Source: Minisyncoccia bacterium (lineage in GTDB: Bacteria > Patescibacteriota > Minisyncoccia > Phycocordibacterales > JAACPR01). From it: a DNA stretch of 43,430 bases. A program made the position numbers and the translations under genes. The stretch lies in contig JBGSLH010000014.1 in the NCBI GenBank assembly GCA_041740795.1, positions 1 through 43,430 on the forward strand. Direction: 5' to 3'. Under the pieces are notes generated by a model. That model was given only the letters and a program-made list of their open reading frames with translations. It did no database searches and was not told where the DNA came from. Shown here in pieces: positions 154 through 17,607 of this stretch. Positions within the stretch are counted from its first letter, which is position 1. The number at the start of each line of letters is the position of its first letter.

Positions 154-441
154 GATGAGTGTATTTGTAACATATTTCCAATTGTAACACAAGGAACGAT
201 TGCTTCTTGGTCAAAATTAGAGCAATGGTATAAAGTTCTTGTCGCCAAGTTCAAAAACCCTGATTTTGAGGGCTTAAAAAGCCCTTGCATAAAAAAAATC
301 TTTACACGGGCTTCTTTTTGTTTTTTTCTTTATTTTTTCTTTAAAAAAGTTGAAAAAGTCATCATTAATTAGCGAGAGTAGGGTATAATTTCAGCAATGA
401 CTAATTGCTGGTCGTTTTATTAGAAGTAATTGCCTTTTGCT

Positions 442-3009: not shown

Positions 3010-3037
3010 TATTATTATCTAATTCAATCTCATACAT

Positions 3038-4012
3038 ATGCTACTAGGAAAACTAACAGAAGAAGACTTCAATATTTACCCGAGCAAATATCCATGGGCA
3101 CGTGAGCTGTACGAACAAGCAGTAGCTAACACGTGGTTTCCACACGAGATCCCTCTCAAGGAAGACCGTGATGACTATGATTCAATGACTGAAGAAGAAC
3201 AACATGCACTTAAGTTCATCATGGCCTTTTTTAACCCTGGAGAACTCATGGTGAATCGTTCTATCGCACTTGGAATCTATCCGCATATTAAGTCTGCAGA
3301 ATGTCACCTGTTCCTTGCAAAGTGGATGTGGGAAGAAGCCAATCACTGTACGTCGTTTGAGTACGTGCTTGAAACATTCAACTTTGATCGGGAAGAAACA
3401 TACGGCATTCACCTTAATCAACCCTCAATGGTTGCAAAGGAAGAATTTGTAAATAATTATACCTCCAAAATGGTATCGGAAGATGTTGATGTGACGACTC
3501 CAGAAGGAAAGAAAGACTTTATCAAAAACCTCATTGCGACAAATATTGTGACCGAGGGAATCTGGTTTTATTCCGGATTCATGGTTATCCTTTCGTTCAG
3601 GCAACGTAACAAGATGCGAAACTTCGGATCAATGATCAACTGGGTACTTCGAGATGAATCACTTCATCTTAAGTTTGGAATGAATCTCATTCTCAATATT
3701 CTCGAAGAAAACGCAGAACTCGTAACCGAAGAATTCGCAAAAGAAATCAAGGACATCATCATCGAAGGTGTTCGACTCGAGAATCAATACAACAAGGACC
3801 TGTTCCCGAACGGGATTCTGGGTCTCAATGCTGAATACGTGAACCAATATGTGCAGTATGTTGCGGATAGGCGGCTTGAGGAACTCGGATTCGAACCTCA
3901 CTTCAACGTTTCGAATCCTGCAAAATGGATGTCCACCTCGACTGACGTGCTCGAGCTCGTGAACTTCTTCGAGCAACAGAATACGAACTATGAAGTGAAC
4001 AACAAGGCGTAA
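3038..4012 (+). CDS. nrdB: Ribonucleotide reductase beta subunit, class Ic (Mn/Fe)-like
   Basis: Ferritin-like ligands E69, EEANH, EGIWFYSGF, RDESLH; C-terminal NFFE...Y; Phe107 at the radical-Tyr position. Confidence 0.93.
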   Translation: MLLGKLTEEDFNIYPSKYPWARELYEQAVANTWFPHEIPLKEDRDDYDSMTEEEQHALKFIMAFFNPGELMVNRSIALGIYPHIKSAECHLFLAKWMWEEANHCTSFEYVLETFNFDREETYGIHLNQPSMVAKEEFVNNYTSKMVSEDVDVTTPEGKKDFIKNLIATNIVTEGIWFYSGFMVILSFRQRNKMRNFGSMINWVLRDESLHLKFGMNLILNILEENAELVTEEFAKEIKDIIIEGVRLENQYNKDLFPNGILGLNAEYVNQYVQYVADRRLEELGFEPHFNVSNPAKWMSTSTDVLELVNFFEQQNTNYEVNNKA

Positions 4013-4144
4013 TTTGAGTCAATGAAAGATTCTCGTGAGTAATGTGTCATATTCGGTACAGATAGGTCTCTGTAAATAAACAGTCCTTTTTGCAGGTATG
4101 CCTAGATGGTATACTTGAAACATTATAAATGTAATCAGATAAAT

Positions 4145-4930
4145 ATGGATTTTAATAATAAGTATGTGCAGTGGGGGGTGAAAGCGGGCGTAGCTACCAT
4201 TGGATTGTTAGCTGTGTTTTTGCTCTCAAAAACAATTACTGAAATTGTTTCTTGGTCACAAGACGAAACTTATCCGTCCAAGACCGTGACGGTGAGCGCT
4301 GAAGGTGAGGCTCTTGCAGTTGCGGATATTGCCTCATTTAGTTTTGGAGTAAGCGAGGAAGGGGTGACAAGTGAGGAGGCGCAGAAGAAGGCAACTGAAA
4401 AAATAAACAAGGCACTTGAGTATCTCAAGGAGAATGACGTGGAAGAAAAGGATATCAAAACTGAGAACTACTCAGTGAATCCCAAGTACAACAACGTTGC
4501 GCCATGTTACGCATTCGACTGTCCTCCGGCAGAATCGAAGATCGTGGGATACATCGTCTCCCAGGACATTCGCGTGAAGGTTCGAGATACTGACAACGCA
4601 GGCAAGTTCCTTAGTGAACTGACTACGTTCGGAATCAACAATGTGTCCGGACTTTCATTCACGATCGATGACAAGGATGCATTGTATGACCTTGCACGAA
4701 AGGATGCAGTAGAGAAGGCTCGGGCAAAGGCGAAGCTTCTTGCAAAGGATCTCGGAGTACAACTTGGGGATGTAATCTCATTCAATGAAGATAGTTCTAC
4801 TCCGTATGCGACAGAGGGTTATGGTGGAGATATGATGAACATGAAGGCGTCAATATCTCCCCAGGTTCAATTACCTCAGGGTGAAAATAAATACACCTCT
4901 CGAGTGTATGTTACGTACGAGTTGAAGTAA
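4145..4930 (+). CDS. SIMPL (DUF541) domain membrane-anchored protein
   Basis: N-terminal TM helix; TVSAEGE..AVAD.A, DIKT.NYSV.P.Y, A...A.AKA..LA..LGV.LG patterns; start may be 4106 or 4145. Confidence 0.85.
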   Translation: MDFNNKYVQWGVKAGVATIGLLAVFLLSKTITEIVSWSQDETYPSKTVTVSAEGEALAVADIASFSFGVSEEGVTSEEAQKKATEKINKALEYLKENDVEEKDIKTENYSVNPKYNNVAPCYAFDCPPAESKIVGYIVSQDIRVKVRDTDNAGKFLSELTTFGINNVSGLSFTIDDKDALYDLARKDAVEKARAKAKLLAKDLGVQLGDVISFNEDSSTPYATEGYGGDMMNMKASISPQVQLPQGENKYTSRVYVTYELK

Positions 4931-4938
4931 AAAAGATT

Positions 4939-4969
4939 AAAAAGGCCAGCACGAAGTGCTGGCCTTTTT
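4939..4969 (+). terminator. Intrinsic terminator (bidirectional shape)
   Basis: AAAAAGGCCAGCAC-GAA-GTGCTGGCCTTTTT. Confidence 0.85.
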
Positions 4970-5005
4970 CTTTACTCTTTATCCCTAAAAGATTACACTA
5001 GCACA

Positions 5006-5821
5006 ATGATTATCTCGGGAACACAAATCAGAGAAAAGCGCACGAACGCCCTCAAACGCAAGATTGCAAAGCTCGAACACAAGCCTGTTCTTGTAATTAT
5101 TCAGATTGGAGAAAATAAGGAATCTCAGGCCTATGTCAACCAGAAGATCAAGTTCGGCAAGCTGATTGGAGTAGCAGTCGAGTTCTATCAGCTCGAATCT
5201 ACGGTGACACTGGATTTTGTGCAAAAACTCATCTCTGACTTCAATCATGATGACGATATTCAGGGAATTATCGTACAGCTACCCTTGCCCAAGAATCTAC
5301 AGAAGTTCCAGTTCGAGATTATCGACAGTATCGTACCTTCAAAGGATGTTGACGGACTGACTTCTTCCAATCTCAAAAGGTTGATCAGCAATGAGTCGGG
5401 AATGCTGCCTGCAACAGCAAAAGGAATCCTGACAATGTTCAAGGAATCCAAGATAGAGATCGCCGGCAAGAATATTGTGATTGTCGGACGATCTGTCCTA
5501 GTTGGACGAAGTCTCTCGCAACTTCTTCTCAATCATGATGCGACCGTGACGATCTGTCATTCAAAGACAAAGGATCTCGCCTCCATTACAAAAAGAGCAG
5601 ACATCATAATTGTAGCCGTTGGTTCGCCCAAGCTCATAACGGCAAAGCATGTATCGGTAGGCCAGGTCGTTATTGATGTGGGAATTACTTCTACTGGTGA
5701 ACTGCTCGAGGGTGATGTTGATTTTGGTCCAGTATCCAAGAGAGTCGCATACATCACGCCGGTTCCTGGTGGAGTAGGGCCGATGACAGTGTTGAGCCTG
5801 TTTGAGAACCTTGTCGGATAG
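5006..5821 (+). CDS. folD: Methylenetetrahydrofolate dehydrogenase/cyclohydrolase
   Basis: YVNQK, GIIVQLPLP, KDVDG, GRS..VG, IDVG, ITPVPGGVGPMT. Confidence 0.96.
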   Translation: MIISGTQIREKRTNALKRKIAKLEHKPVLVIIQIGENKESQAYVNQKIKFGKLIGVAVEFYQLESTVTLDFVQKLISDFNHDDDIQGIIVQLPLPKNLQKFQFEIIDSIVPSKDVDGLTSSNLKRLISNESGMLPATAKGILTMFKESKIEIAGKNIVIVGRSVLVGRSLSQLLLNHDATVTICHSKTKDLASITKRADIIIVAVGSPKLITAKHVSVGQVVIDVGITSTGELLEGDVDFGPVSKRVAYITPVPGGVGPMTVLSLFENLVG

Positions 5822-5833
5822 GAAAAGGAAAGT

Positions 5834-5862
5834 TTGACTAACTTTCCCAGAAGTAGTATATT
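5834..5862 (+). promoter_or_regulatory. Sigma70-type promoter for secE-nusG
   Basis: TTGACT-N17-TATATT. Confidence 0.6.
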
Positions 5863-5908
5863 TGCTGTATAGAAACCCCTTCGGGGGTTTTAAAAATGAC
5901 CAAAATAT

Positions 5909-6088
5909 ATGAATATTTTTAATTTTTTGAGAGAAGTAAAAGGTGAGATGAAGCACGTGAGCTGGCCTACAAAGAAGCAGACAATCGCATACAGCCTTAT
6001 GGTAGTTGTGATATCGCTTTTTGTAGCCCTGTACGTTGGTGTTTTTGACCACCTCTTTTCTCTCGGAATCGAACAACTTACAAAGTAA
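5909..6088 (+). CDS. secE: Preprotein translocase subunit SecE (not in ORF track)
   Basis: Manual translation MNIFNFLREVKGEMKHVSWPTKKQTIAYSLMVVVISLFVALYVGVFDHLFSLGIEQLTK: E..KV.WP-like motif plus a TM helix, directly before nusG. Confidence 0.95.
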   Translation: MNIFNFLREVKGEMKHVSWPTKKQTIAYSLMVVVISLFVALYVGVFDHLFSLGIEQLTK

Positions 6089-6099
6089 TTTTTTTGAGT

Positions 6100-6648
6100 A
6101 TGTCAAAACAACAACAACCAAATCGAGATCGAAACTGGTACGCTATTCATACATATGCAGGATATGAAAACGCCGTTCTTCGAAACCTCAAACAGCGAAT
6201 CGAATCATACGGAATGGAAGACCATATCTTCAATGTAGTTGTTCCTATTGAAAAAAAGATAAGGATCAAAGGAAACAAGCGTGTAGAAGTAGAAGAAAAG
6301 GTCTATCCAGGATATGTTTTGGTGGATATGGTTGTGACGGATGACTCTTGGTATGTTGTGCGTAACACTCCTCGTGTTACTGGATTCGTAGGAGCGGGAG
6401 TATTCCCAGTTCCTCTTTCCAAAAAGGAAATCGACGAACTCTTCAGTCGAATGACGAATGATACTGCAAAACACGCAGTTGATCTTGAAATCTCAGATGC
6501 AATTGTTATTGTAGACGGGCCATTCAAGGATCTTGAAGGAAAGATTGAAGAAATCGACAATGAACGAGGAAAAGTAAAAGTATTGGTATCAATGTTTGGT
6601 CGAGAGACTCCGGTGGAACTGGATTTCCTGCAAATAAGGAAGATTTAG
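6100..6648 (+). CDS. nusG: Transcription termination/antitermination factor NusG
   Basis: WYAIHTYAGYE, YPGYVLV, VRNTPRVTGFVG, KOW motif DGPF, MFGRETPVEL. Confidence 0.97.
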   Translation: MSKQQQPNRDRNWYAIHTYAGYENAVLRNLKQRIESYGMEDHIFNVVVPIEKKIRIKGNKRVEVEEKVYPGYVLVDMVVTDDSWYVVRNTPRVTGFVGAGVFPVPLSKKEIDELFSRMTNDTAKHAVDLEISDAIVIVDGPFKDLEGKIEEIDNERGKVKVLVSMFGRETPVELDFLQIRKI

Positions 6649-6654
6649 AAGGAA

Positions 6655-6743
6655 TGTCATCCCGCACAAGTTTGCGAAAGACAAACGCGGATGCGGGATA
6701 TCATAATAAAACACCGAGATCCCGGAATAAATCCGGGATGACA
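6655..6743. repeat. REP-like inverted pair of GTCATCCCG palindromic units
   Basis: TGTCATCCCGCA...TGCGGGAT and GAGATCCCGGAATAAATCCGGGATGACA in inverted orientation. Confidence 0.7.
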
Positions 6744-6788
6744 TCCCTCCCTTGCTAAAACAATAAAATAAGATAATATAACCACACT

Positions 6789-7211
6789 ATGGCTAAAAAA
6801 ATAACAAAAGTAATCAAGCTTATCGCACCTGCAGGTAAGGCAACACCGGCTCCACCCCTTGGACCGGTGCTTGGACAGGCAGGAGTAAATATTGCTGAAT
6901 TCACACAACGATTCAACGCTGATACACAATCTCGAATGGGAGAGCTTGTGCCAGTTGTGCTGACAGTGTATGAAGATCGAACATTCTCAATGATTTACAA
7001 GGTTGCTCCGGCTTCTGACCTTATCAAGAAGGCGGCAGGAATCACTTCAGGTTCAGGAACAAACGTAACCAAAAAAGCTGGTTCAATCACAAAGGCTCAA
7101 CTAAAGGAGATCGCAGAACGAAAGATGCCGGATCTCAACGCGAATTCTATTGAAGGAGCGATGAATATCCTTGCTGGAACATGTCGATCAATGGGAGTCG
7201 AAGTTAAGTAA
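6789..7211 (+). CDS. rplK: 50S ribosomal protein L11
   Basis: [21 protein letters not shown]...FN, KMPDLNA, GT.RSMG. Confidence 0.98.
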
Positions 7212-7229
7212 ACTATTTATATAAAAGAG

Positions 7230-7255
7230 AAAGGGCGCCCGAAGGGCGCCCTTTT
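7230..7255. terminator. Bidirectional terminator between convergent rplK and the DHFR-like gene
   Basis: AAAGGGCGCCC-GAA-GGGCGCCCTTTT. Confidence 0.85.
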
Positions 7256-7257
7256 GA

Positions 7258-7818
7258 TTAGGAAGGCCTGACTTTCCTCATCCAATGCTGGACCTGGATA
7301 GGGGAAACCTGTCTTTGTGGATCTGTTCCGAATCTGGCATGATTCATTAGCCAGATTTCCTCTTTTGAATCTATCCATGACACCTGACGAAAACGCTGGG
7401 TGTCTATTTTTGGAAAGCATAAGGAGGAAGCTGAAATGTTCATGCCTATCTGTAGGTAGCGAATCTCAGTCGCCTCCTGAACAATGCTTATCGGCAACTG
7501 ATCGTCTCCGATGACCCATATGTTCGGGGTTGAGTCTGTTGCAGATGCCAATGCCACAGAGAGATCTTTTGAAGCGAAGACCCTCGAATCTTTCCCAACC
7601 TCACCGTTATGCAGGACTGTTATCTTTGCGCATGCAGCGAGTAAGAATTCTTGGAAAAACACATCTTGAAAACTATCGCTTCCGATCAGGATCGATCGAC
7701 CGTGAATATGTTGTAAAAGAAAGTTTCTGAAAATGGCCCAATGTAACCATGGAATGATTCCTTTGGCATCAGACATTCCATAGGAACGTGTACCTGAACC
7801 GATAAGTGTTATGTTCAT
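7258..7818 (-). CDS. Divergent dihydrofolate reductase-like protein
   Basis: DHFR-fold echoes: N-terminal strand, G.IPW, ILIG..SF, IWVIG, FP.ID...F; acidic substrate residue and GG motif degenerate; TACTAT 6 nt before the ATG. Confidence 0.6.
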   Translation of the reverse strand: MNITLIGSGTRSYGMSDAKGIIPWLHWAIFRNFLLQHIHGRSILIGSDSFQDVFFQEFLLAACAKITVLHNGEVGKDSRVFASKDLSVALASATDSTPNIWVIGDDQLPISIVQEATEIRYLQIGMNISASSLCFPKIDTQRFRQVSWIDSKEEIWLMNHARFGTDPQRQVSPIQVQHWMRKVRPS

Positions 7819-7887
7819 GTCGTAATAGTAGTGTGCTGTTTAATTAATTCTAAACGCTTTTGCCGAGAATACAACTGGACGAAAAGG

Positions 7888-8535
7888 CTAATCAGTGTTG
7901 ACCTTGAAGTCTTGTTTGAGCTTCTGAATATCTCCTTCCTTTACAAGCTTTACTTCATCCTTGTATTTGTTCTGAACCATGAATCCATCGATAATATCCT
8001 TTTGATGGTATGTTCCTTTCTCCTTTTTGGAAGGTTCTGAAAGTTCTTCGAATGTAACCTGACAGAATCGCTCTCCTGGATAAATTGCAATAGATTGAGT
8101 TGTTGTGTTGTTTCGAATTGGAATAATAAGTTGTCCAGAATATCCTGTATCAATAATTCCTGTAAGGTCCACGGACAAGCCACGTCTGTTGGTAGATGAT
8201 CGGGGATAGAGGACCGACATGACATCATCAGGCCATGTGATTGTCTCGAGTGTGCAGGCGAGCACGTGTTCTCCCGGGAGAAGCTCAAACATCTGACCCT
8301 TTTCGAGTTCAATCACCTCGAAGTTGTTCTGGTCTTCCTTGGGATTCATATAATCGAAGGAAAGAGATTCTCGACCTCGGGGAGTCATGTGCCATTGTTT
8401 CGGTATTAAAAAAGTATATCCAAGTCGAAGGTCAATCGCGTGTGCCTGAAGTTGGAATTGATCGAGTGAAGGTTCGATGATGATGCTACCGTTTTTGATT
8501 CGTTCCAATATCTGTCGTTGTGTAAGTATTCCCAT
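7888..8535 (-). CDS. dcd: dCTP deaminase-family (trimeric dUTPase fold) protein lacking the catalytic Glu
   Basis: IDLRLG, L.PGE..LA.TLE, RSS..R.GL, IDTGYSG, YPGER.CQ; Pro139 where E. coli Dcd has Glu138. Confidence 0.85.
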   Translation of the reverse strand: MGILTQRQILERIKNGSIIIEPSLDQFQLQAHAIDLRLGYTFLIPKQWHMTPRGRESLSFDYMNPKEDQNNFEVIELEKGQMFELLPGEHVLACTLETITWPDDVMSVLYPRSSTNRRGLSVDLTGIIDTGYSGQLIIPIRNNTTTQSIAIYPGERFCQVTFEELSEPSKKEKGTYHQKDIIDGFMVQNKYKDEVKLVKEGDIQKLKQDFKVNTD

Positions 8536-8537
8536 GA

Positions 8538-9038
8538 TTATGAAGTTATTTTATATTCCAATAGTAGCGTATTTGCCCCTAGTTGGGTAGTTGAAAGAAG
8601 TTCCAGATTGGTTTCTGAAATGTTGCTCATGAGCGGTATTCCTACTCCAAAAAGTATCGGTTCAAGCGTAATATACAAAGTAGAAATACATCCTGCTTGA
8701 AAGAACATGGTGTAGATCGAACTTCCACCACAGATTGCCACTTCGTTCACTCCTTCTTCTTCAAGCTTTGTGAGTAAGTCTTGGGGTGAAAGACTTGTTG
8801 TTTCGATCCCTTCAATATCAATGGGTTTTGTCGAATAGACAATCGTCCTTCGTCCGGGAAGCGCTTTGCCAATTGTTTCGAATGTCGTTCGTCCCATTAC
8901 GACCACTCCAGCTTCGTTTGTTCTTTTTTTAAAAAATTCCTTGTCCGCTCCACTCGTCCAAGTCATCGAATTAGTATGTTCAAGGGGACTGATGAATCCA
9001 TCGAGTGACTGTGCTGCAATGATGAAAGCTTTGATCAT
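8538..9038 (-). CDS. folA: Dihydrofolate reductase
   Basis: SLDGFI, W...AD..FF...T, VVMGRTTFE.IG.ALPGR, ICGG..IY; overlaps the thyA stop. Confidence 0.88.
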   Translation of the reverse strand: MIKAFIIAAQSLDGFISPLEHTNSMTWTSGADKEFFKKRTNEAGVVVMGRTTFETIGKALPGRRTIVYSTKPIDIEGIETTSLSPQDLLTKLEEEGVNEVAICGGSSIYTMFFQAGCISTLYITLEPILFGVGIPLMSNISETNLELLSTTQLGANTLLLEYKITS

Positions 9039-9871
9039 AATACAATTTTGAGACCTTTAATCGCAGGCGCAGGCTTATACTGCTTTTTGAGATTGAGCGT
9101 GATCTCTTTTACGAGATTCACGTCTTTTTTTTCTGCTCGAGAGAAAGATTTTGGAGGCAAGGTCAGTCTCACTTTCTTATGGGCAACTTTTCGTTTGATG
9201 ATTTCTTTTGCTGTATCGTAATGGATGTCGTAGAAGTGCGCGTTTGAAATCGTGTGAGTATAGATTCCTGGTTTTACTCCGAGTTCTTGTGCAAGGATAC
9301 ACTGGAGAAGTGCAAATCCTGCGACATCGTGAGGGAATCCTAGAATCATGTCATTAGACCTGATGATATTGTGCATGTGCAATTTGCCACCGATGATATT
9401 TACGGTGAATGTATATGGACAGGGAACATTCTTTTTGGTTACACCTCCGAGTCCGTCAGCCGAAGGATCCCATGTGACAACCACCCCGTGTCTTGAAGTC
9501 GGATCTTTTTTGAGAAGACTGACCAGGAGTTTGAGCTGGTCTCGTCCAAAGTGCTTTCTCCAACGATATCCGTATGCAACTGTTACGACGTCGCCTGGGT
9601 TTGTAAATATATCCCAGATCTTTGTGAACTGTCTGAGAAAATCGGCCGGCTTGCGCGATCCCGAGATGAACCATGCCTGTTCTGCAACAAAAAGTTGAAT
9701 CGGAATTTCTCTAAGTGTAAGAAGGGGAAAGCCGTCTTTTTCTATGTCCATTGAAAAAGTAAGTCCCGGAAGCGCCTTTGTCTCGTGTCCTGTCCGGGCA
9801 TTGGTCTCGGCGATTCCGTGTTTCATAATGTCCTTGAGTAAGTTTTGGTAGATGGTGTCGAAAGGGGTCAT
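9035..9871 (-). CDS. thyA: Thymidylate synthase-family enzyme with dCMP-type specificity residue
   Basis: RTG, FPLLT, E..WF, YG..WR, catalytic PC (C151), RSND, H.Y; Asp182 at the Asn177 position. Confidence 0.9.
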   Translation of the reverse strand: MTPFDTIYQNLLKDIMKHGIAETNARTGHETKALPGLTFSMDIEKDGFPLLTLREIPIQLFVAEQAWFISGSRKPADFLRQFTKIWDIFTNPGDVVTVAYGYRWRKHFGRDQLKLLVSLLKKDPTSRHGVVVTWDPSADGLGGVTKKNVPCPYTFTVNIIGGKLHMHNIIRSNDMILGFPHDVAGFALLQCILAQELGVKPGIYTHTISNAHFYDIHYDTAKEIIKRKVAHKKVRLTLPPKSFSRAEKKDVNLVKEITLNLKKQYKPAPAIKGLKIVL

Positions 9872-9966
9872 GGGTATATTGTAGCAAATTGGTGAAAGGG
9901 GTATATATTGACTTGTAATTTGATTATGTCATTATTCGATTTGAACTGATTTCTGAAAACTAAAAC

Positions 9967-10419
9967 ATGAAAGCCAAACAACTTCCACATACAAGGACTG
10001 TTTTTGTAGCTGTGAGCCATGATATTTGGCAAAAAGCTGTATCAACTAGTCGTCGCCCTAATCTTGAGCAGGACTTAGATTTGATGCCAGAAGATCCTTT
10101 GGTTGAAAATCACCATTTCGAAATTGTACTCCTTAGCATTGAAGACATGCTTCAAGCTAAGGATTCTTTGAGTCAGGAAGAGCTGCAAAGTATGTTGTGT
10201 TTGCTCGAGCTTGAGCCACTTGATCCTCGAATTATGATAATTCTTGATACTCAAGATTCAAATTTCAACCACTGTGCTACTTTCTGGAAGAAAGAAAACA
10301 AATTTTGTGTCATGTCTTTGAATTCAGAGCGTGGCGCGCCAGAGCAAGACACTTCTCCTGTTAATCCAATAAAGATTTTTTGGTGCAAAGGATGGTCGGT
10401 TGCTACTGTTTGTTTATAA
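9967..10419 (+). CDS. Hypothetical protein (orphan)
   Basis: 150-aa ATG ORF filling the gap, TTGACT upstream, followed by a hairpin. Confidence 0.55.
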   Translation: MKAKQLPHTRTVFVAVSHDIWQKAVSTSRRPNLEQDLDLMPEDPLVENHHFEIVLLSIEDMLQAKDSLSQEELQSMLCLLELEPLDPRIMIILDTQDSNFNHCATFWKKENKFCVMSLNSERGAPEQDTSPVNPIKIFWCKGWSVATVCL

Positions 10420-10437
10420 AATTGCAAATGCTACTTC

Positions 10438-10464
10438 AAGGCGCGCCGTACGGCGTGCCTTTTT
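10438..10464 (+). terminator. Intrinsic terminator
   Basis: AAGGCGCGCCG-TA-CGGCGTGCCTTTTT. Confidence 0.75.
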
Positions 10465-10493
10465 ATATAAAAAAGTTTTGGTATACTTTTGGC

Positions 10494-10988
10494 ATGCACA
10501 ACATTCAATATCCATACATTCCTCCCAATCGAACGATTGATTACGTTCCTCGGGATAACACATTTATTCTGCAGGCCAAGGAATATGCCCGGAAGCATTC
10601 ACTCGATAAGACCATGCCTGGCGCTGCCGTTGTTGTGAAGGACGGTGAATTGATTGGTATCGGTGCGAACGGAAGCAACTACCACGAGAAGCACGGCTGC
10701 GAACGAGTGCGTCAGGGATGTGGAAGTGGAAAGGGATACGAGCTCTGCGAAGGATGTCATCCCAAGAACCATTCAGAACCGACAGCGATCAATAACGCGA
10801 TTGATAATGGATACCACACTGAAGGTGCTGACATCTATCTCTGGGGCCATTGGTGGTGTTGCGAATCCTGCTGGAACGTTATGATTTCGGCTGGGATAAA
10901 GGACGTATATCTTATGGAGGGAAGCGAAGTGCTTTTTTGCAAAGAGCATCCTGACAACATTGTTGGAAGACAATTCGAGGGTAATTAG
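10494..10988 (+). CDS. Deoxycytidylate (dCMP) deaminase-family zinc enzyme
   Basis: GAAVV..G..IG.G.NG, HSE..AI, CCESC (PCxxC equivalent), MI.AGI..V; extra Cys-rich loop; ATG at 10494 follows TGGTATACT. Confidence 0.85.
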   Translation: MHNIQYPYIPPNRTIDYVPRDNTFILQAKEYARKHSLDKTMPGAAVVVKDGELIGIGANGSNYHEKHGCERVRQGCGSGKGYELCEGCHPKNHSEPTAINNAIDNGYHTEGADIYLWGHWWCCESCWNVMISAGIKDVYLMEGSEVLFCKEHPDNIVGRQFEGN

Positions 10989-10999
10989 TTCTTTTAAGT

Positions 11000-11031
11000 A
11001 AGGCGGGGCACCGAAGGTGCCCCGCCTTTTT
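11000..11031 (+). terminator. Intrinsic terminator
   Basis: AAGGCGGGGCACC-GAA-GGTGCCCCGCCTTTTT. Confidence 0.85.
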
Positions 11032-11078
11032 CTTTTGTGCTAGAATAAACCCACTATCAGTCATTAATCCAAACCATC

Positions 11079-12254
11079 ATGAACGATACCGAAATCCAAA
11101 AGCTTATAAAGGCTGAAAAAACAAGACAGGGCAAAGTTATCAATTTCATAGCATCCGAAAATATCGTCTCAAAGGACGTTCTTGTTGCTCTCGGTTCAGA
11201 ACTGACGAACAAGTACGCCGAAGGATATGCGCATGCTCGTTATTATGGTGGAAACGAAGTGGTCGACCAGATCGAGGATCTCTGCATTGTACGAGCACTT
11301 AAGACATTTAAACTAGCCAAGAACAAATGGCACGTGAATGTCCAACCTCTCTCCGGTTCACCTGCGAACTTGGCAGTATATTCTGCACTGCTGACACCGG
11401 GTGACAAGATAATGGCGATGGATCTTTCTCATGGCGGGCATCTTACTCATGGATTCAAAGTCTCTTTCACGGGAAAACTTTACACTCAGATCGCCTATGG
11501 AGTTGATGAAAAAACTCAAAAACTAGATTACGAAAATCTTATGCAGATTGCTAAAAAATATCAACCGAAATTAATTATTACTGGATACTCTGCATATCCT
11601 AGAAAAATTGATTTTAAAAAATTTAAGGAGATTGCAGATTCGGTCGGCGCACTTCTCATGGTAGACATGGCACACATTGCAGGACTTGTCGCGGCTGGTG
11701 CACATCCAAACCCTTTTGCTCATGCGGATATCGTAACCTCTACAACCCACAAGACACTTCGAGGTCCACGGTCCGGAATTATTTTTGTAAAAAAAGACGA
11801 ACGAGAACTAGATAAAAAAATAGACAAAGCAGTTTTCCCTGGACTCCAAGGTGGTCCACACATGAATCAGATTGCTGCTGTCGCAGTTGCTCTCAAAGAA
11901 GCGCAGACTCCCGCATACAAAAAATACATTGATCAGGTGTGTAAGAACGCAAAAGTACTTGCAGAAGAACTCAAAAAACTTGGATGGAAAATTCTATCAG
12001 GAGGGACAGACAATCACCTTGTCCTTGTTGATGTGTGGATGGATGGAAAGGGAATCGGAGGCAAGGACGCGTCTGACAAGCTCGAGGCAGAGGGAATCAT
12101 CGTGAACAAGAACACGATTCCTGGAGAAAAACGATCACCAGTAAACCCTTCTGGTATCAGGCTCGGTACTGCAGCGGAGACCACTCGAGGCTTGAAGGAA
12201 AAGGATTTTATCAGAATCGCAAAGCGGATAGATTCGATATTAAAGAGTTCCTAG
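11079..12254 (+). CDS. glyA: Serine hydroxymethyltransferase
   Basis: IASEN, NKYAEGY...RYYGG, GGHLTHG, TTHKTLRGPR (PLP lysine), FPGLQGGP, SGIRLGT. Confidence 0.98.
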   Translation: MNDTEIQKLIKAEKTRQGKVINFIASENIVSKDVLVALGSELTNKYAEGYAHARYYGGNEVVDQIEDLCIVRALKTFKLAKNKWHVNVQPLSGSPANLAVYSALLTPGDKIMAMDLSHGGHLTHGFKVSFTGKLYTQIAYGVDEKTQKLDYENLMQIAKKYQPKLIITGYSAYPRKIDFKKFKEIADSVGALLMVDMAHIAGLVAAGAHPNPFAHADIVTSTTHKTLRGPRSGIIFVKKDERELDKKIDKAVFPGLQGGPHMNQIAAVAVALKEAQTPAYKKYIDQVCKNAKVLAEELKKLGWKILSGGTDNHLVLVDVWMDGKGIGGKDASDKLEAEGIIVNKNTIPGEKRSPVNPSGIRLGTAAETTRGLKEKDFIRIAKRIDSILKSS

Positions 12255-12326
12255 ACTAGCTAAGTACTAAATATTATTTAGTTTAATATGTACCGAGCCT
12301 GGTCTGGACCTAAATTAAATAACTAG

Positions 12327-12374
12327 AAATAAGTAAAAACCATACTATCTAAATAGTATGGTTTTTACTTATTT
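12327..12374. terminator. Long AT-rich inverted repeat between convergent genes
   Basis: AAATAAGTAAAAACCATACTAT-CTAA-ATAGTATGGTTTTTACTTATTT. Confidence 0.7.
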
Positions 12375-13812
12375 ACTTAACCGTATAAGTTGAGAAGGTT
12401 GCACCAAGCTCTTTATTATAGAAATTCAAAAGTGCTTGTTGCGCAGCTAGTGCATCTTTATTTGCATATTCTTTTCTTTTGTCTGCCTTTTTTGAATTAT
12501 CCGCTGCCTGTGATGCAATTTCAAAGCTTTTTTTGATAAATTTAATATATTTATTTTTATCATTCCAAGTATCCCTGGCCTTTTTCGATGCCGACTGATC
12601 ATATTCATAGACTGTTCCGTCTGCAGAAACAGCTCTTTCGATAACGTCTCCAAGTCCTAGTATTTTGTGATACGCGTTTTCTTTAATGAAAAAACTTCCA
12701 AATATATCTGCATCTGAGGGAATTGGAGAATAATAGTTTCCATTTTTATAAATTAAGTATTTTTTTATATTCTCATCTTTGGAACCATCACGAATTGATT
12801 TGAAATCATGGCTATGATACATATACATTTTCTTGATATCTTTTTCTTTGTATGCTTCATAAAAAGATTTCACAACATTTATTGGAACTGTTTCTCCTGA
12901 AGTCATGTCTATAAGTTTTGCACATACTAGGTCATTACCATATTGGACAGCAAAAGCAAAAACTTCTCCTTGTGCATTAATTTTTAGTTTGCTATCACCC
13001 TTGTTCTGTGCAAATTGCATAAGTTTTCTCTCTAGTTCAGATACATTTGAGAAAACCACATGAGACGGCGATAGTTCAGCACAGTTTTGATAATAAGTAT
13101 TTATCTCTGTTGGACCATTAAGATTTAGATTCCAAAGTATTTGAACTTTCTGTAAAAGCCCACCGTTCACACTTGCTCCGAGATAAAAACCATTATTAGC
13201 CCATTCGTCCCACGAGTCATCAGACATTAATGTCCAAGTTATCTGTGTATATTGAGGATATGTATATGTGCCCGTGCTCTCGACTTTATTTTCTCGAAAA
13301 ATAGTCCATTTAACAGGTACATAGGGAGAGCCCCAGGCCGCACTTCTTAATTCTGATGTTGAGGACGTCGTCTTTAAGATATTTTTTTCATTAACTTCAA
13401 CTTGAGGAGCGCTGATTCCAAGGCCTTTGGTTGTCTCTTTGTCTAAAAACTCCGTATCAGAGGACGATAATCCATCCGAAGGAGTTGTGGACATACGCAC
13501 CAAAGAACCAATCTTATTTTTCGTTTTGTATCCAAAATATCCCTGCGAAGGTTCAATATTGTTATCTTTTTGAAAACTTGAGAGCGCCTTACGAGTTAAT
13601 TCGCCAAAATAATCACTCTCGTGTCCAATAGACCCTTCTTCACCGAGTGTTTGATTTACTATATATCCATTACTGTTTAAGAATTTTTGCAATTCAGAAA
13701 CATTCGAGTTGGTAGTTTTATATTCCAAATCAGGATATTGTTCGAAGTTAGCGAATGTAATAATTGGTGATAAAAGTATTAATGAAGCAGTAAATATGGT
13801 TATTTTTTTCAT
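12373..13812 (-). CDS. Secreted protein with N-terminal peptidoglycan-binding domain, AT-rich
   Basis: Signal peptide; V.ELQ.FL...GY, YFG.LT..AL..FQ, GYFG..T PG-binding pattern; C-terminal part unrecognised. Confidence 0.75.
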   Translation of the reverse strand: MKKITIFTASLILLSPIITFANFEQYPDLEYKTTNSNVSELQKFLNSNGYIVNQTLGEEGSIGHESDYFGELTRKALSSFQKDNNIEPSQGYFGYKTKNKIGSLVRMSTTPSDGLSSSDTEFLDKETTKGLGISAPQVEVNEKNILKTTSSTSELRSAAWGSPYVPVKWTIFRENKVESTGTYTYPQYTQITWTLMSDDSWDEWANNGFYLGASVNGGLLQKVQILWNLNLNGPTEINTYYQNCAELSPSHVVFSNVSELERKLMQFAQNKGDSKLKINAQGEVFAFAVQYGNDLVCAKLIDMTSGETVPINVVKSFYEAYKEKDIKKMYMYHSHDFKSIRDGSKDENIKKYLIYKNGNYYSPIPSDADIFGSFFIKENAYHKILGLGDVIERAVSADGTVYEYDQSASKKARDTWNDKNKYIKFIKKSFEIASQAADNSKKADKRKEYANKDALAAQQALLNFYNKELGATFSTYTVK

Positions 13813-13882
13813 AAAATAAGTATATACTAATTCATTTTTTTGACTATTATTTATTCACAGATAGTGTTAACCTAATATTAAT

Positions 13883-14515
13883 ATGAATACATCACAAAAA
13901 GGAACATTCGTGGTGATTGAAGGTCCTGATGGATCAGGAAAATCAACCCAAATGACAATGCTTGCGGATTTTTTTGGTGACAAATTAATTCTAACAAGAG
14001 AACCAGGTGGAACGGAATATGCAGAATCAATTCGTGAACTTGCCTTGAAGCACCCACGTGCAGGAGAGGCTGATGGTAAAACACTGTTCATGCTTATGTG
14101 GGCATCGCGAGCTGAACACATGAATCATCTTATAATTCCTTCTCTGAAAGAAGGGAAGATAGTTGTGAGTGACCGTTTTGATTCATCGACATTCGCTTAT
14201 AACATCTATGCGCAGGGTGAAAAAGAAATGATTGATTATTTCAATCAAACTCGAACAGCTATTCTTGGATCGGATACTCCTGATTTGTACATCTATCTCG
14301 ATGTTACACCGGAAGTAGGTCGGTCTCGAATGAGCGGAAGAGGTGACGAAGAAAATCACTTCGACGTACGTTCGGATGATTTCAAGGAAACGGTCAGGAA
14401 GGGATATTTGGAATTTTTCAGGAATGTTCCTCATGTCGTTATTGATGCGAGCAGAACGAAGGATGAAATATTTGAAGATATCCTGACTGCGATCAAAAAA
14501 GTCTGTGGAATCTAA
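13883..14515 (+). CDS. tmk: Thymidylate kinase
   Basis: EGPDGSGKST P-loop, TREPGGT, SDRF..S..AY, PDL..YLDV. Confidence 0.96.
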   Translation: MNTSQKGTFVVIEGPDGSGKSTQMTMLADFFGDKLILTREPGGTEYAESIRELALKHPRAGEADGKTLFMLMWASRAEHMNHLIIPSLKEGKIVVSDRFDSSTFAYNIYAQGEKEMIDYFNQTRTAILGSDTPDLYIYLDVTPEVGRSRMSGRGDEENHFDVRSDDFKETVRKGYLEFFRNVPHVVIDASRTKDEIFEDILTAIKKVCGI

Positions 14516-14519
14516 TTTT

Positions 14520-14559
14520 GAGAGTCTGTCGTACCTATTGCGACGGACTCTCTTTTTTT
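14520..14559 (+). terminator. Intrinsic terminator
   Basis: GAGAGTCTGTCG...CGACGGACTCTC followed by a T-tract. Confidence 0.6.
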
Positions 14560-14572
14560 ATACAGTACATCC

Positions 14573-14995
14573 ATGAATATTCGTATAAAAAAACTTCACC
14601 CTGACGCACAGATTCCAAAACTGGCACATCATGATGATGCGGGATTCGATATGTATGCAACTGAAACCATTACACTACAACCAGGAGAAAAAGGAAGGAT
14701 ACCAACAGGGATTTCGATGGAAATTCCTTTTGAATACGCAGTGTTATTTTGGGATAAGAGCAGTATTTCTCATGATGGAGGTATTAAAACACTTGGAGGT
14801 GTGATAGATTCTGGATATCGAGGAGAGTTTGTTGTCGGTGTCATTAATCTTGGAAAAGAAGCATATACTTTTGAAAAAGGACGTAAGATTGCACAATTTT
14901 TAATTCAAAAAGTTGAAATACCCACATTCGAAGAGGTTGATGAACTGTCAGAAACAATAAGGGGAGAGGGGACGTTAGGAAGTACTGGAAAATAA
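14573..14995 (+). CDS. dut: dUTP diphosphatase (trimeric)
   Basis: AGFD, KSS (motif 2), GVIDSGYRGE, IAQ, RGEG.LGSTG. Confidence 0.95.
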   Translation: MNIRIKKLHPDAQIPKLAHHDDAGFDMYATETITLQPGEKGRIPTGISMEIPFEYAVLFWDKSSISHDGGIKTLGGVIDSGYRGEFVVGVINLGKEAYTFEKGRKIAQFLIQKVEIPTFEEVDELSETIRGEGTLGSTGK

Positions 14996-14996
14996 C

Positions 14997-16682
14997 ATGC
15001 AAGAAGAAATCAAAAAATATATACTCAAGGATCTTGAAAAACTCGGCTATCCGCAAGTAGATTTTGTTGTGGAACTTCCGAAAGATATTACCAACGGAGA
15101 TTTTTCAACCAATATCGCCCTTGTGCTTTCAAAAGAAATTGGAAAGAGTCCAAAAGAAATTGCTGATTCGCTCGTTGCGACTTGGACTACTGAATCAACT
15201 CCAGCCTTTTCAAAAATAGAAACAGCTGGTCCTGGCTTTATCAACTTCTACCTTTCAAAAGAGTATATAGAAAATGAAATTGCAAAGCCTTTTGCAAACT
15301 TACAAACTCAATACACAGGCAAGAAAATCATTACCGAATTTACAGACCCTAATCCATTCAAGCAATTTCACATCGGACATTTGATGTCGAATACGATTGG
15401 GGAGTCCGTCTCTCGACTATTTGAAATCGGTGGAGCAGATGTGACCCGAGTCTGCTATAACGGTGACATAGGACCGCATATTGCAAAAGGAATATGGGGA
15501 ATGATTCAACACACGGAAATGTTTCCTCAAGAACAAGATTCTCTTGAAGACAAGATGAAATACATGGGAGATGCTTATGTATATGGATCTAATCAGTATG
15601 AGGAAGATGAAAAGGTTCAGTCAGAGATAAAAGAAATCAATAAAAAGCTTTTTGAAGGTTCAGATTCTGAATTACAAATCTATTATGACAAGGGGCGAGC
15701 CTGGAGTCTTGAATATTTTGATACTATCTATAAGAAGCTCGGAACAGAATTCAAACATTTGTTTTTTGAGACTCAAACAGCACCAATCGGTAAGAAAATT
15801 GTAGAGGATAATATTGCTACGGGTATTTTTGAAAAGAGTGAAGAAAGCGAAGCTATTATTTATAAGGGGGAACAGGATGGGTTGCACACGCGAGTATTCA
15901 TTAATTCACAAGGACTCCCTACGTATGAAGCAAAAGATCTTGGTCTTGCTGTCATGAAAAGTGAGTTTGGAAGTTATGATCTCTCTATAGTAGTAACAGC
16001 ACAGGAACAGAATGAGTATTTTAAGGTCATGCTTGCTGCACTTTCTATGATTAAACCTGAAGTTGCTGCTATGACAAAACATATTTCACATGGGATGATG
16101 CAGTTTGCTGATGGTAAAATGTCATCTCGAAAGGGGAACGTGATTACTGGCGATACACTTCTCGAACAAGTTGAACAGAAAGTAATTGAAAAGATTGCAG
16201 AGAGAGAATACTCAGAAGAAGAAAAAAAGGAAATTATCGATACCGTTTCAATTGCTGCACTCAAATACTCAATCCTCAAACAAGCACCTGGGAAGAACAT
16301 TATTTTTGATTTTGAAAAGTCTATTTCATTTGAAGGTGATAGTGGTCCATATATTCAATATGCATATACCCGTGCGATGTCTGTTCTCAATAAGGCTGGA
16401 GATTTTGCACCTGATGCAAAAAATTTGAAAGATACGTATCACATAGAAAAACTTTTAATCAGATTTGATTCAATTGTTATGCGAGCGATTGAAGAACTTG
16501 CTCCACAGATTGTTGCGAATTACCTCATTGAACTTGCTGGTGAATTCAATTCTTGGTACGCACAGGAAAAGATACTCGGAGACGAGAATGAAAAGTATAA
16601 ACTACTCATAGCAAAGAAAGTTACTGAAGTTTTGAAAGTTGGTTTAAATATACTTGGAATCAAAGTGCCAAGTAAGATGTAA
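14997..16682 (+). CDS. argS: Arginine--tRNA ligase
   Basis: GPGFINF, PNP.K.FHIGH, KMSSRKGNV, GDSGPYIQY. Confidence 0.97.
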   Translation: MQEEIKKYILKDLEKLGYPQVDFVVELPKDITNGDFSTNIALVLSKEIGKSPKEIADSLVATWTTESTPAFSKIETAGPGFINFYLSKEYIENEIAKPFANLQTQYTGKKIITEFTDPNPFKQFHIGHLMSNTIGESVSRLFEIGGADVTRVCYNGDIGPHIAKGIWGMIQHTEMFPQEQDSLEDKMKYMGDAYVYGSNQYEEDEKVQSEIKEINKKLFEGSDSELQIYYDKGRAWSLEYFDTIYKKLGTEFKHLFFETQTAPIGKKIVEDNIATGIFEKSEESEAIIYKGEQDGLHTRVFINSQGLPTYEAKDLGLAVMKSEFGSYDLSIVVTAQEQNEYFKVMLAALSMIKPEVAAMTKHISHGMMQFADGKMSSRKGNVITGDTLLEQVEQKVIEKIAEREYSEEEKKEIIDTVSIAALKYSILKQAPGKNIIFDFEKSISFEGDSGPYIQYAYTRAMSVLNKAGDFAPDAKNLKDTYHIEKLLIRFDSIVMRAIEELAPQIVANYLIELAGEFNSWYAQEKILGDENEKYKLLIAKKVTEVLKVGLNILGIKVPSKM

Positions 16683-16687
16683 GAGCA

Positions 16688-16714
16688 CGTCATTCCCACT
16701 TTCGTGGGAATGAT
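16688..16714. repeat. REP-like palindrome (GTCATTCCC type)
   Basis: CGTCATTCCCAC-TTTC-GTGGGAATGAT, no U-tract. Confidence 0.55.
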
Positions 16715-16746
16715 ACTATTTTGAATTTTGGTATACTAATCCCATT

Positions 16747-17607
16747 ATGCCTGATAAATATTCTGCAGTATGGGTCTCACACTCCTCAATGGGAGATTTT
16801 CTAAAATGTCCCCGTTCGTACTATCTCAAGAACATGTACAAGAATCCCAAGACTGGGAAGAAGATGAACATCGTCAGTCCTGCACTTTCTCTCGGTTCTG
16901 CCGTACACGAAGTCGTCGAAGGTCTTGCTGTGTATCCGGCTGAAAAACGTTTTGAACATCCTGAGGAATTACTCGTGCGTTTTGATCAGGTATGGGAAAA
17001 ATTCAAGGGGAAAAAAGGAGGTTTTAAAACTGAGGAAGAGGAACAGGCGGCAAAAGAAAGAGGCAAGTCGATGATTCAAAGAGTAATTGATAACCCTGGT
17101 CCGCTCAAAGAAAAAATTGTAAAGCTTAAAGAGGGTGAGATGCTTCCAAATTTTTATCTTTCAGAAAAAGACAATATTATTTTGTGTGGGAGAATTGATT
17201 GGCTTGGATACAAACCAGAAGATGACAGTATTCACATTCTTGATTTTAAAACTGGAAAGCATGAAGAAAATTCTGACTCACTCCAACTTCCTATTTATCA
17301 ACTTCTTTTAAATAATCTACAAAAAAGAAAAGTAACAGGCGCATCGTATTGGTATCTTGATTCTGATAATGAACCCAAAGAGGTCGCGTTGCCCAATCTA
17401 GAGGATTCGTTCGAACGCGTATACGAAGTTGCCAAAAAAGTTTCGGACGCGCGTGCCCGGGCTCAGATCGAAGGTGTCGAAAAAGTTTTCACATGTCCTC
17501 GTGGCGAAACAGGGTGCTTTGGTTGCGCTCCATTTGAAAAAATAATCAAAGGCGAAGCAGAATTTCTTGGAACAGGGGAATGGGGGCAGGAGATGTATAT
17601 GGTGTAA
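16747..17607 (+). CDS. PD-(D/E)XK nuclease, AddB/Cas4-like with Fe-S cysteines
   Basis: S.S....F..CP, GS.VH, GRID, ILDFKTG, QL.IY, C-terminal CP.....CFGC. Confidence 0.85.
   Translation: MPDKYSAVWVSHSSMGDFLKCPRSYYLKNMYKNPKTGKKMNIVSPALSLGSAVHEVVEGLAVYPAEKRFEHPEELLVRFDQVWEKFKGKKGGFKTEEEEQAAKERGKSMIQRVIDNPGPLKEKIVKLKEGEMLPNFYLSEKDNIILCGRIDWLGYKPEDDSIHILDFKTGKHEENSDSLQLPIYQLLLNNLQKRKVTGASYWYLDSDNEPKEVALPNLEDSFERVYEVAKKVSDARARAQIEGVEKVFTCPRGETGCFGCAPFEKIIKGEAEFLGTGEWGQEMYMV

Follow-up and report, generated by a model that had tools for sequence, protein, structure and literature searches.

A conserved thymidylate synthase homolog with a predicted cytosine-type pocket in a Minisyncoccia bacterium, and a possible route to thymidylate that bypasses dUMP

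Textbooks describe two enzymes by which cells make thymidylate (deoxythymidine monophosphate, dTMP) de novo, ThyA and ThyX, both of which methylate deoxyuridine monophosphate (dUMP). Here we describe a thymidylate synthase homolog from a Minisyncoccia bacterium in which an aspartate, Asp182, occupies the position of Asn177 of Escherichia coli ThyA. It is encoded by an open reading frame (ORF) in a 43,430-nucleotide stretch of DNA (GenBank assembly GCA_041740795.1, contig JBGSLH010000014.1), the whole of which we call the window. The features that bear on its function are listed below. The E-values given here and elsewhere come from different tools and databases and are not comparable with one another.

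9035 to 9871, minus strand: thymidylate-synthase-fold protein of 278 amino acids with Asn148, Cys151, Pro152, Ile170, and Asp182 (PF00303, alignments, signature of 81 orthologs, AlphaFold2 model)
9326 to 9328, minus strand: GAT codon of Asp182, in the column of E. coli Asn177 (codon reading and alignments)
9416 to 9421, minus strand: TGT-CCA codons of Cys151-Pro152, in the columns of E. coli Cys146-His147 (codon reading and alignments)
8538 to 9038, minus strand: dihydrofolate reductase (DHFR), 166 amino acids (Pfam DHFR_1, 8.9e-19)
7888 to 8535, minus strand: deoxycytidine triphosphate (dCTP)-deaminase-like protein (DCD-like protein), 215 amino acids (Pfam DCD, 5.6e-32; TIGR02274, 118.7 bits)
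10494 to 10988, plus strand: protein of the deoxycytidine monophosphate (dCMP)/cytidine deaminase family, 164 amino acids, divergently transcribed from the synthase gene (PF00383, 46.9 bits)
11079 to 12254, plus strand: serine hydroxymethyltransferase (SHMT), which regenerates methylene-tetrahydrofolate (Pfam SHMT, 5.1e-166)
13883 to 14515, plus strand: thymidylate kinase, dTMP to the diphosphate dTDP (PF02223, 132.5 to 132.7 bits)
14573 to 14995, plus strand: conventional deoxyuridine triphosphatase (dUTPase), 140 amino acids, distinct from the DCD-like protein (PF00692, 90.5 to 91 bits)
5006 to 5821, plus strand: FolD, methylene-tetrahydrofolate dehydrogenase/cyclohydrolase
430 to 4012, plus strand: class I ribonucleotide reductase, with a large subunit carrying an ATP-cone (430 to 3009) and a small subunit (3038 to 4012)

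The ATG of the DHFR gene overlaps the TGA of the synthase gene by 4 nucleotides (ATGA), and the NusG and L11 genes (nusG and rplK) are also found in the window near the synthase module. To judge how far this arrangement is conserved, we used the window together with the best 80 of 227 stretches that encode a relative of the synthase in contigs from one genome per species; all ortholog counts out of 81 given below refer to this set. The proteins of the 80 related loci are 68 to 90% identical to that of the window, and all come from Parcubacteria-type metagenome-assembled genomes, on contigs of up to 686 kb. The deaminase gene recurs in 79 of these loci, the DCD-like gene in 76, the SHMT gene in 60, and the L11 gene in 47 to 48, while DHFR lies beside the synthase in 53 by tblastn and in 62 by blastp; many of the 80 loci end at contig edges, and the missing neighbors are partly technical. 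A word-based search returned 2389 proteins, the best 120 of which are 72 to 100% identical, nearly all 278 amino acids long, and, where the source is named, from Parcubacteria/Paceibacterota-type bacteria. Across the phylum, 14 of 301 sampled genomes (a tally that takes in G154, which is not one of the 14) have an ortholog that is at least 48% identical.

The 278-amino-acid protein matches PF00303 (Thymidylat_synt) over residues 7 to 254, with 177.5 bits against a cut-off of 24.3 (3.7e-52). Aligned with solved thymidylate synthases by phmmer, it has Asp182 for E. coli Asn177, Pro152 for His147, Asn148 for Leu143, and Ile170 for Gln165, and a MAFFT alignment with E. coli ThyA, T4 gp42, and the enzyme of phage XP12 agrees. 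The minus-strand codons are TGT for Cys151 (9419 to 9421) and CCA for Pro152 (9416 to 9418); Ile170 is encoded at 9362 to 9364, Arg171-Ser172-Asn173-Asp174 at 9350 to 9361, and His181 at 9329 to 9331. When phmmer is run against solved thymidylate synthases, the motif R-S-N-D-M-I-L-G-F-P-H-D aligns with R-S-A/C-D-x-F-L-G-x-P-F-N. Codon reading and the alignments thus bear out the preliminary description of this DNA, which had placed Asp182 31 residues past the catalytic Cys151 and had noted that Pro follows this Cys and that Ile stands at the equivalent of Gln165. Of the canonical ThyA features Asn177, His147, and Gln165, the last two of which belong to the O4-side water network, none is present. 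The rest of the thymidylate synthase catalytic apparatus is intact, including the C-terminal tail, whose pattern Y-x-P-x-x-x-I-K-G-L-x-I-x-L matches the C-terminal end of the E. coli enzyme.

These replacements are fixed in the family (E. coli numbering from here on). Asp177, Asn143, and Cys146 are each present in 81 of 81 orthologs and Pro147 in 78 of 81, and because Asp is found in all 81, Asp182 is neither a chance nor a sequencing variant. Column 165 is Val in 62 orthologs and Ile in 19, and residue 176 is His, Ala, or Ser. Arg21, Arg166, Ser167, Asp169, Glu58, Tyr94, His207, and Tyr209 are invariant in the 81 orthologs, as is Trp80, and the column of E. coli Trp83 is Phe in all of them. 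AlphaFold2, given 75 aligned sequences, yields a model with a predicted local distance difference test score of 96.7, to which Foldseek assigns the thymidylate synthase fold, with template modeling (TM) scores of 0.82 to 0.84 to solved bacterial thymidylate synthases. Foldseek also matches the model to the dCMP-bound structure of the Lactobacillus casei N229D mutant (1njc). We predict that the product of the ORF is a dCMP C5-methyltransferase with a cytosine-type pocket, an enzyme whose reaction we take to be EC 2.1.1.54.

It is unlikely, in our judgment, that the protein is instead an ordinary thymidylate synthase whose substrate is dUMP, alone or together with dCMP, and in which Asp, perhaps protonated, is simply tolerated. 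The deaminase and the dUTPase would furnish dUMP for such an enzyme, leaving the DCD-like protein only to supply dCMP or dUMP. Apart from the replaced positions, the protein does have every catalytic and folate-side residue of a thymidylate synthase, and the NCBIfam model TIGR03284 scores above its cut-off (123.6 versus 108.35). However, five NCBIfam equivalog models for thymidylate synthase (NF002497, NF002496, NF002495, NF002499, and NF002498) score only 75 to 139 against cut-offs of 325 to 427, and the O4-side residues 143, 147, 165, and 177 are changed jointly, as they are in reported makers of 5-methyldeoxycytidine (5-methyl-dC). In addition, PMC8670742 reports that residue 177 dictates the preference for dUMP or dCMP, that changing Asn to Asp shifts this preference to dCMP and yields a dCMP methylase, and that positions 177 and 147 best separate homologs on phage contigs with modified cytosine from those on unmodified contigs. 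The engineered enzymes L. casei N229D and E. coli N177D carry the same single change as the window protein, in which, however, the change is natural and fixed and is accompanied by three more changes in the pocket.

An exhaustive HMMER search over 1.84 billion representatives gave 13453 matches. Among the best 130 representative clusters of at least 240 amino acids, 119 have Asp177 and 80 have exactly Asn143/Pro147/Asp177, and Asn177 is first met at rank 100 of the 150 nearest representative clusters. We then placed the protein in a likelihood tree of 108 rows with support from the Shimodaira-Hasegawa-like approximate likelihood ratio test (SH-aLRT); the tree leaves out representatives of more than 330 or fewer than 240 amino acids, every second representative after the first 40, and one aberrant sequence, L109. 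Enzymes with Asn177 form one clade of 25 rows (99% SH-aLRT); its members include E. coli ThyA and ThyA from further genomes of the order to which the window belongs, and only one of them, L110, departs from the rule in carrying Asp. The window protein falls outside the clade, a placement that argues against an ordinary dUMP synthase, and column 177 is Asp rather than Asn; alignment and phylogeny both support the cytosine-type site of the preliminary description. The window clade consists of five sequences from the candidate phyla radiation (99%) and lies within an all-Asp group of 21 rows (89%), and XP12 is in a separate all-Asp group of 47 rows (96%); the tree does not resolve the forks that join the two groups. 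In a search of phage genomes, the top places go to the XP12 group, whose members XP12, PaMx28/74, AAT-1, DLP4, and others are phages of Xanthomonas, Stenotrophomonas, and Pseudomonas, with Roseobacter and Rhodobacter phages ranking after them; the best phage matches have 32 to 40% identity, with E-values down to 4e-56. XP12 has a single synthase homolog, with the signature Asn143/Pro147/Asp177 and Leu at 165. In a viral collection, no contig comes closer to the synthase than 44% identity, and the family is therefore not a recent phage insertion.

The two sequences singled out in the tree are paralogs from other genomes. L110 (ORF 437 to 1330, plus strand, of G308:C8:25300-27000) shares its genome with an Asn-type ThyA; it lies within the canonical clade, yet it has Pro147 and Asp177, with Glu and Phe at the columns of His207 and Tyr209, and it looks like an independent switch from Asn to Asp. 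L109 (ORF 295 to 1341, minus strand, of G391:C1:200900-202600) is an aberrant paralog of 348 amino acids from a complete single-contig genome that has an Asp-type gene too; it keeps the Cys and the Asn of column 177 and lacks Glu58, Trp80, and Tyr94. Some Asp177 homologs are fused to an N-terminal partner: a dCMP deaminase in P0146, a PRA-PH/MazG-like pyrophosphohydrolase in P0170, and an HNH endonuclease in P0157.

The preliminary description had likened the active site to that of T4-type dCMP hydroxymethylases. The shared features are real, since T4 gp42 has both the R-S-N-D motif and Asp at the 177 column, but the likeness does not extend further: gp42 is only 23% identical to the window protein and sits on a very long, isolated branch (end branch 3.75), XP12-type methylases are nearer, and gp42 ends about 30 residues earlier, lacks the C-terminal tail, and has Asp143 and Thr147. 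Its reaction, as described in PMC8670742, gives tetrahydrofolate, so that it has no need of DHFR. We therefore regard it as highly improbable that the window enzyme is a hydroxymethylase of the gp42 kind with 5-hydroxymethyl-dCMP as its product. The window synthase retains the tail and is translationally coupled to DHFR. Moreover, neither a further synthase nor ThyX nor thymidine kinase was found, so that the cell would have no visible source of thymidylate if the enzyme were a hydroxymethylase. The proposal in the preliminary description that full methylation takes place rather than hydroxymethylation is favored by the XP12-group enzymes being its best phage matches, by its place outside the Asn177 clade, by the presence of SHMT and FolD nearby, and, as indirect evidence, by the retained tail and by the start of the DHFR gene that overlaps the synthase stop codon.

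The second protein of interest, the DCD-like protein, scores above the cut-off of TIGR02274 (dCTP deaminase, NCBIfam). In alignments with Protein Data Bank (PDB) entries, its Pro139 (codon 8119 to 8121) falls in the column of Glu138, the catalytic residue of E. coli Dcd. This column holds Glu in the E. coli and Mycobacterium tuberculosis enzymes and is mutated in several PDB entries. Pro occupies it in 75 of 75 DCD-like orthologs, a count from which 2 of 76 matches were dropped as partial, and the Ser and Arg of the site are retained. The Glu is kept in 15 of 15 dCTP deaminase homologs detected in genomes without an Asp-type synthase (20 loci were fetched, of which L113, L114, L117, and L124 gave no blastp match). 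The DCD-like protein is likely to be a deoxynucleoside triphosphate pyrophosphatase, most simply one that converts dCTP to dCMP, and its annotation as a deaminase is likely to be wrong. The third protein, the divergently encoded deaminase, is very divergent in sequence but retains the zinc motifs H-x-E and C-x-x-C, as H-S-E at residues 93 to 95 and C-E-S-C at residues 123 to 126. A PDB search with it returned only RibD (1.4e-3). We predict that it is a 5-methyl-dCMP deaminase. The substrates that we assign to all three module proteins are ones that we infer.

We asked what other sources of thymidylate these bacteria have. The genome of the window (653 kb, 80% complete) has one PF00303 match, and neither ThyX nor thymidine kinase was found in it at this level of completeness. 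We also considered 17 relatives that carry the ortholog, 15 of which are at least 90% complete and one of which is a single contig. No ThyX above the cut-off and no thymidine kinase was found in any of the 17, although one contains a ThyX fragment of 21.8 bits that is interrupted by two stops; 16 of the 17 have no second synthase-family match. In a sample of 151 genomes of the window's order, 18 have the Asp-type synthase, 78 have other synthase-family matches, and 55 have none with an E-value of up to 1e-5; the 17 relatives among the 18 are classed as Asp-type by 64 to 90% identity rather than by a direct reading of residue 177. Strong orthologs of the 164-amino-acid deaminase occur in exactly 18 of the 151 genomes, which are those with the Asp-type synthase, and strong Pro-type DCD-like orthologs occur in the same 18 and in one more genome, G360. 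That the type of deaminase tracks the type of synthase would be unexpected if both deaminases made only dUMP. The 18 Asp-type genomes span 16 GTDB families, and both states are found within 4 families and once within one genus, which indicates that the module has been swapped repeatedly as a unit. When 20 of the other synthase genes of the order were fetched, 18 proved to have the full canonical site (His147, Gln165, Phe176, and Asn177).

Based on the active-site residues, their conservation, the tree, and the linkage and co-inheritance of the genes, we favor, with moderate confidence, the view that the gene encodes a cellular dCMP methyltransferase in a route dCTP to dCMP to 5-methyl-dCMP to dTMP. 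Under this reading, we think it fairly probable that the Asp182 enzyme is not specific for dUMP and that the co-inherited module reaches dTMP without dUMP. Ribonucleotide reductase would supply deoxycytidine nucleotides, and the DCD-like protein, having lost the deaminase Glu, would hydrolyze dCTP to dCMP. The Asp182 enzyme would then convert dCMP and 5,10-methylene-tetrahydrofolate to 5-methyl-dCMP and dihydrofolate, with Cys151 as the nucleophile and Asp182 pairing with N3/N4 of the cytosine. DHFR, SHMT, and FolD would recycle the folate, the divergent deaminase would turn 5-methyl-dCMP into dTMP, and the adjacent thymidylate kinase would carry dTMP onward. Methylation of dCMP would yield dihydrofolate, and this would explain why DHFR, SHMT, and FolD travel with the synthase. 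In the simplest model, the net chemistry of this permuted route is that of the classical dCTP deaminase/dUTPase/ThyA route, minus the dUMP intermediate.

Several observations weigh against a dCMP methyltransferase route, and some of them are points in favor of an ordinary dUMP synthase. The window synthase is not within the XP12 subclade, the assignment as a methylase by homology spans only 36 to 38% identity, and E. coli Arg127 is replaced by His in 71 of the 81 orthologs and by Gln in the other 10. A tblastn search of phages with the deaminase gave 8 weak matches, with E-values no better than 3e-5 and no member of the XP12 group among them; we had considered a kinship of this protein to phage deaminases selective for 5-methylcytosine (5mC) and rejected it on these grounds. 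The single characterized phage deaminase, according to bioRxiv 10.1101/2024.12.05.627091, acts on the triphosphate and not on 5-methyl-dCMP. The window deaminase could equally well convert dCMP to dUMP, and the conventional dUTPase in the genome yields dUMP, so that both are possible sources of this nucleotide. A route dCTP to dCMP to dUMP to dTMP fits the same genes if the Asp enzyme accepts dUMP. Furthermore, gene adjacency is equal in the Asn-type modules of the order, where ThyA also adjoins a gene for a dCMP-deaminase-like protein, a Glu-bearing dCTP deaminase, or both. Examples are G376:C13:7327-9102 and G364:C5:24334-25734, and some of these ThyA proteins are about 335 amino acids long with an internal insertion. 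The existence of the Asn-type clusters suggests that a thymidylate gene cluster is ancestral and exists in two alternative versions. We therefore rejected the adjacency of synthase and deaminase as a hallmark of the cytosine type, although it is reported as such for phages; only the type of deaminase is informative.

The genome G360 bears on the same question, since at the same locus beside L11 (L128, G360:C1:76500-84500; ORFs 1854 to 3143, 3210 to 3761, and 3918 to 4550) it shows a swap. A 429-amino-acid protein with a ThyX domain (58.5 bits) and a conventional-looking dCMP deaminase replace the Asp-type synthase and its deaminase. The G360 deaminase scores 77 bits, versus 46.9 for the window deaminase. 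In G360 the L11 gene and the Pro-type DCD-like gene are still in place; a DHFR was not seen at the locus. Since the same DCD-like protein here accompanies a ThyX, which is dUMP dependent, the Pro-type protein can be compatible with a dUMP-dependent synthase, and this too counts for dUMP as the substrate in the window and against the route through 5-methyl-dCMP.

A more far-reaching explanation would be that the product of a dCMP methyltransferase also enters the chromosome, so that, as in phage XP12, 5mC replaces much or all of the cytosine. In that case the role of the DCD-like enzyme would be to clear dCTP, and the deaminase would channel some of the pool into thymidine nucleotides. The gene set does match the order of the XP12 locus (hydrolase, synthase homolog, dCMP deaminase, and DHFR), and a pyrophosphatase-like enzyme lies within the operon. 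No C5 DNA methyltransferase was found in the window genome, and any 5mC would therefore come from the nucleotide pool. Nevertheless, we consider this explanation quite improbable. No 5-methyl-dCMP kinase is evident, the position of thymidylate kinase next to the module accords with a route to dTMP at the monophosphate level, and a cell needs a regulated dCTP pool unless the replacement is total. Bisulfite libraries that hold this DNA were looked for and none was listed, which speaks neither for nor against the replacement. Neither cytidylate kinase nor nucleoside-diphosphate kinase was found in the window genome, which is 80% complete. Cytidylate kinase is, however, rare throughout the order: it is strong in 2 of the 18 module genomes and was found in 6 of the 151. 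Because it is equally rare whatever the type of synthase, we rejected it as a discriminator between synthase types. Chromosome-wide 5mC, if true, would to our knowledge make this the first cellular organism with base replacement at the level of the nucleotide pool.

A comparison with known systems shows how the proposed dCMP methyltransferase of the window relates to each. It shares with canonical ThyA (E. coli and L. casei; EC 2.1.1.45) the fold (TM 0.82 to 0.84), the nucleophilic Cys, the C-terminal tail, the residues Arg21, Arg126, Arg166, Ser167, Asp169, Glu58, Tyr94, Trp80, His207, and Tyr209, and the operon logic with DHFR. It differs in having Asp for Asn177, Pro for His147, Asn for Leu143, Ile or Val for Gln165, and Phe for Trp83, and in lying outside the 99% Asn177 clade. 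With the XP12 dCMP methyltransferase it shares the fold, Asn143, Cys146, Pro147, a hydrophobic residue at 165, Asp177, Phe at the Trp83 column, and the C-terminal tail, and both genes have DHFR, a dCMP-deaminase-family gene, and a nucleotide hydrolase as neighbors. In contrast to XP12, the window gene is chromosomal and housekeeping in a cellular host, near nusG and rplK; its product is 36 to 38% identical to the phage enzyme and belongs to another all-Asp subclade; residue 176 is His, Ala, or Ser in the window family rather than Tyr; and the Arg127 column has changed to His or Gln. The partner proteins differ as well, the window hydrolase being DCD-like and not of the HAD or MazG kind, and the deaminase not being close to the phage one.

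The nearest precedent for the route itself is also from phages. The preprint bioRxiv 10.1101/2024.12.05.627091 reports 5-methyl-dC in E. coli from the XP12 homolog and from 5 of 7 deaminase-linked Asp177 homologs, as well as selective deamination of 5-methyl-dCTP by a linked PF00383 enzyme, and proposes that 5mC phages obtain dTTP by deamination of 5-methyl-dC nucleotides and not through a dUMP synthase. The phage bypass (mSCD-B5 and XP12) resembles the window module in combining an Asp177 homolog with a PF00383 deaminase and having no separate dUMP synthase. It differs in that it is described for phages only and that the characterized phage enzyme acts on the triphosphate, whereas the thymidylate kinase beside the window module points to the monophosphate, and the deaminases are not close relatives. 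Patescibacteria are not mentioned in the text of that preprint, and we found neither a cytosine-type thymidylate synthase from cells or the candidate phyla radiation nor a 5-methyl-dCMP-to-dTMP route in the literature searched, which excludes most subscription journals.

Thus, both the kind of enzyme and a route to thymidine nucleotides by deamination of 5-methyl-dC are already known or proposed for phages. What would be new is a version that is cellular, chromosomal, housekeeping, and widely conserved, and whose two co-evolved partners are annotated as ordinary enzymes. We regard a third cellular thymidylate route that bypasses dUMP as much more probable than chromosome-wide replacement of cytosine by 5mC. 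On this reading, a lineage of ultra-small bacteria, represented by the window and at least 80 related genomes, would have as its sole identifiable thymidylate route one that runs through a cytosine-type enzyme known so far from phages. If this is true, the order of reactions is permuted to hydrolyze, methylate, and deaminate, and 5-methyl-dCMP is a normal cellular metabolite. This would bear on uracil avoidance, on how methylation is called in metagenomes, and on automatic annotation, in which all three module genes currently carry the names of conventional enzymes. The module may also be a source of natural enzymes that make or deaminate 5-methyl-dC nucleotides, and it lends itself to testing how phages and cells exchange genes of nucleotide metabolism.

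The surroundings of the module show some further features. Within positions 430 to 17607, DNA-precursor genes are packed unusually completely in a stretch of about 15 kb, which takes in the reductase, FolD, the thymidylate module of five genes, thymidylate kinase, and dUTPase; ArgRS and a PD-(D/E)XK Cas4-like nuclease (16747 to 17607) come after the precursor-gene cluster. Between the L11 and DCD-like genes lies an ORF of 186 amino acids (7258 to 7818, minus strand). We considered it as a second DHFR and rejected this, since it has no Pfam or NCBIfam match and no similarity to DHFR; it has a counterpart in 0 of the 80 related loci and may be lineage specific or no gene at all. Rfam gives nothing at gathering score in the whole window and two sub-threshold matches in the spacer between the synthase and deaminase genes. 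This spacer also contains a nonconserved ORF of 150 amino acids (9967 to 10419) with no Pfam match. At 622 bp (9872 to 10493), it is longer than in most related loci, where it measures about 30 to 200 bp, and in the closest locus, L005, it is 148 bp.

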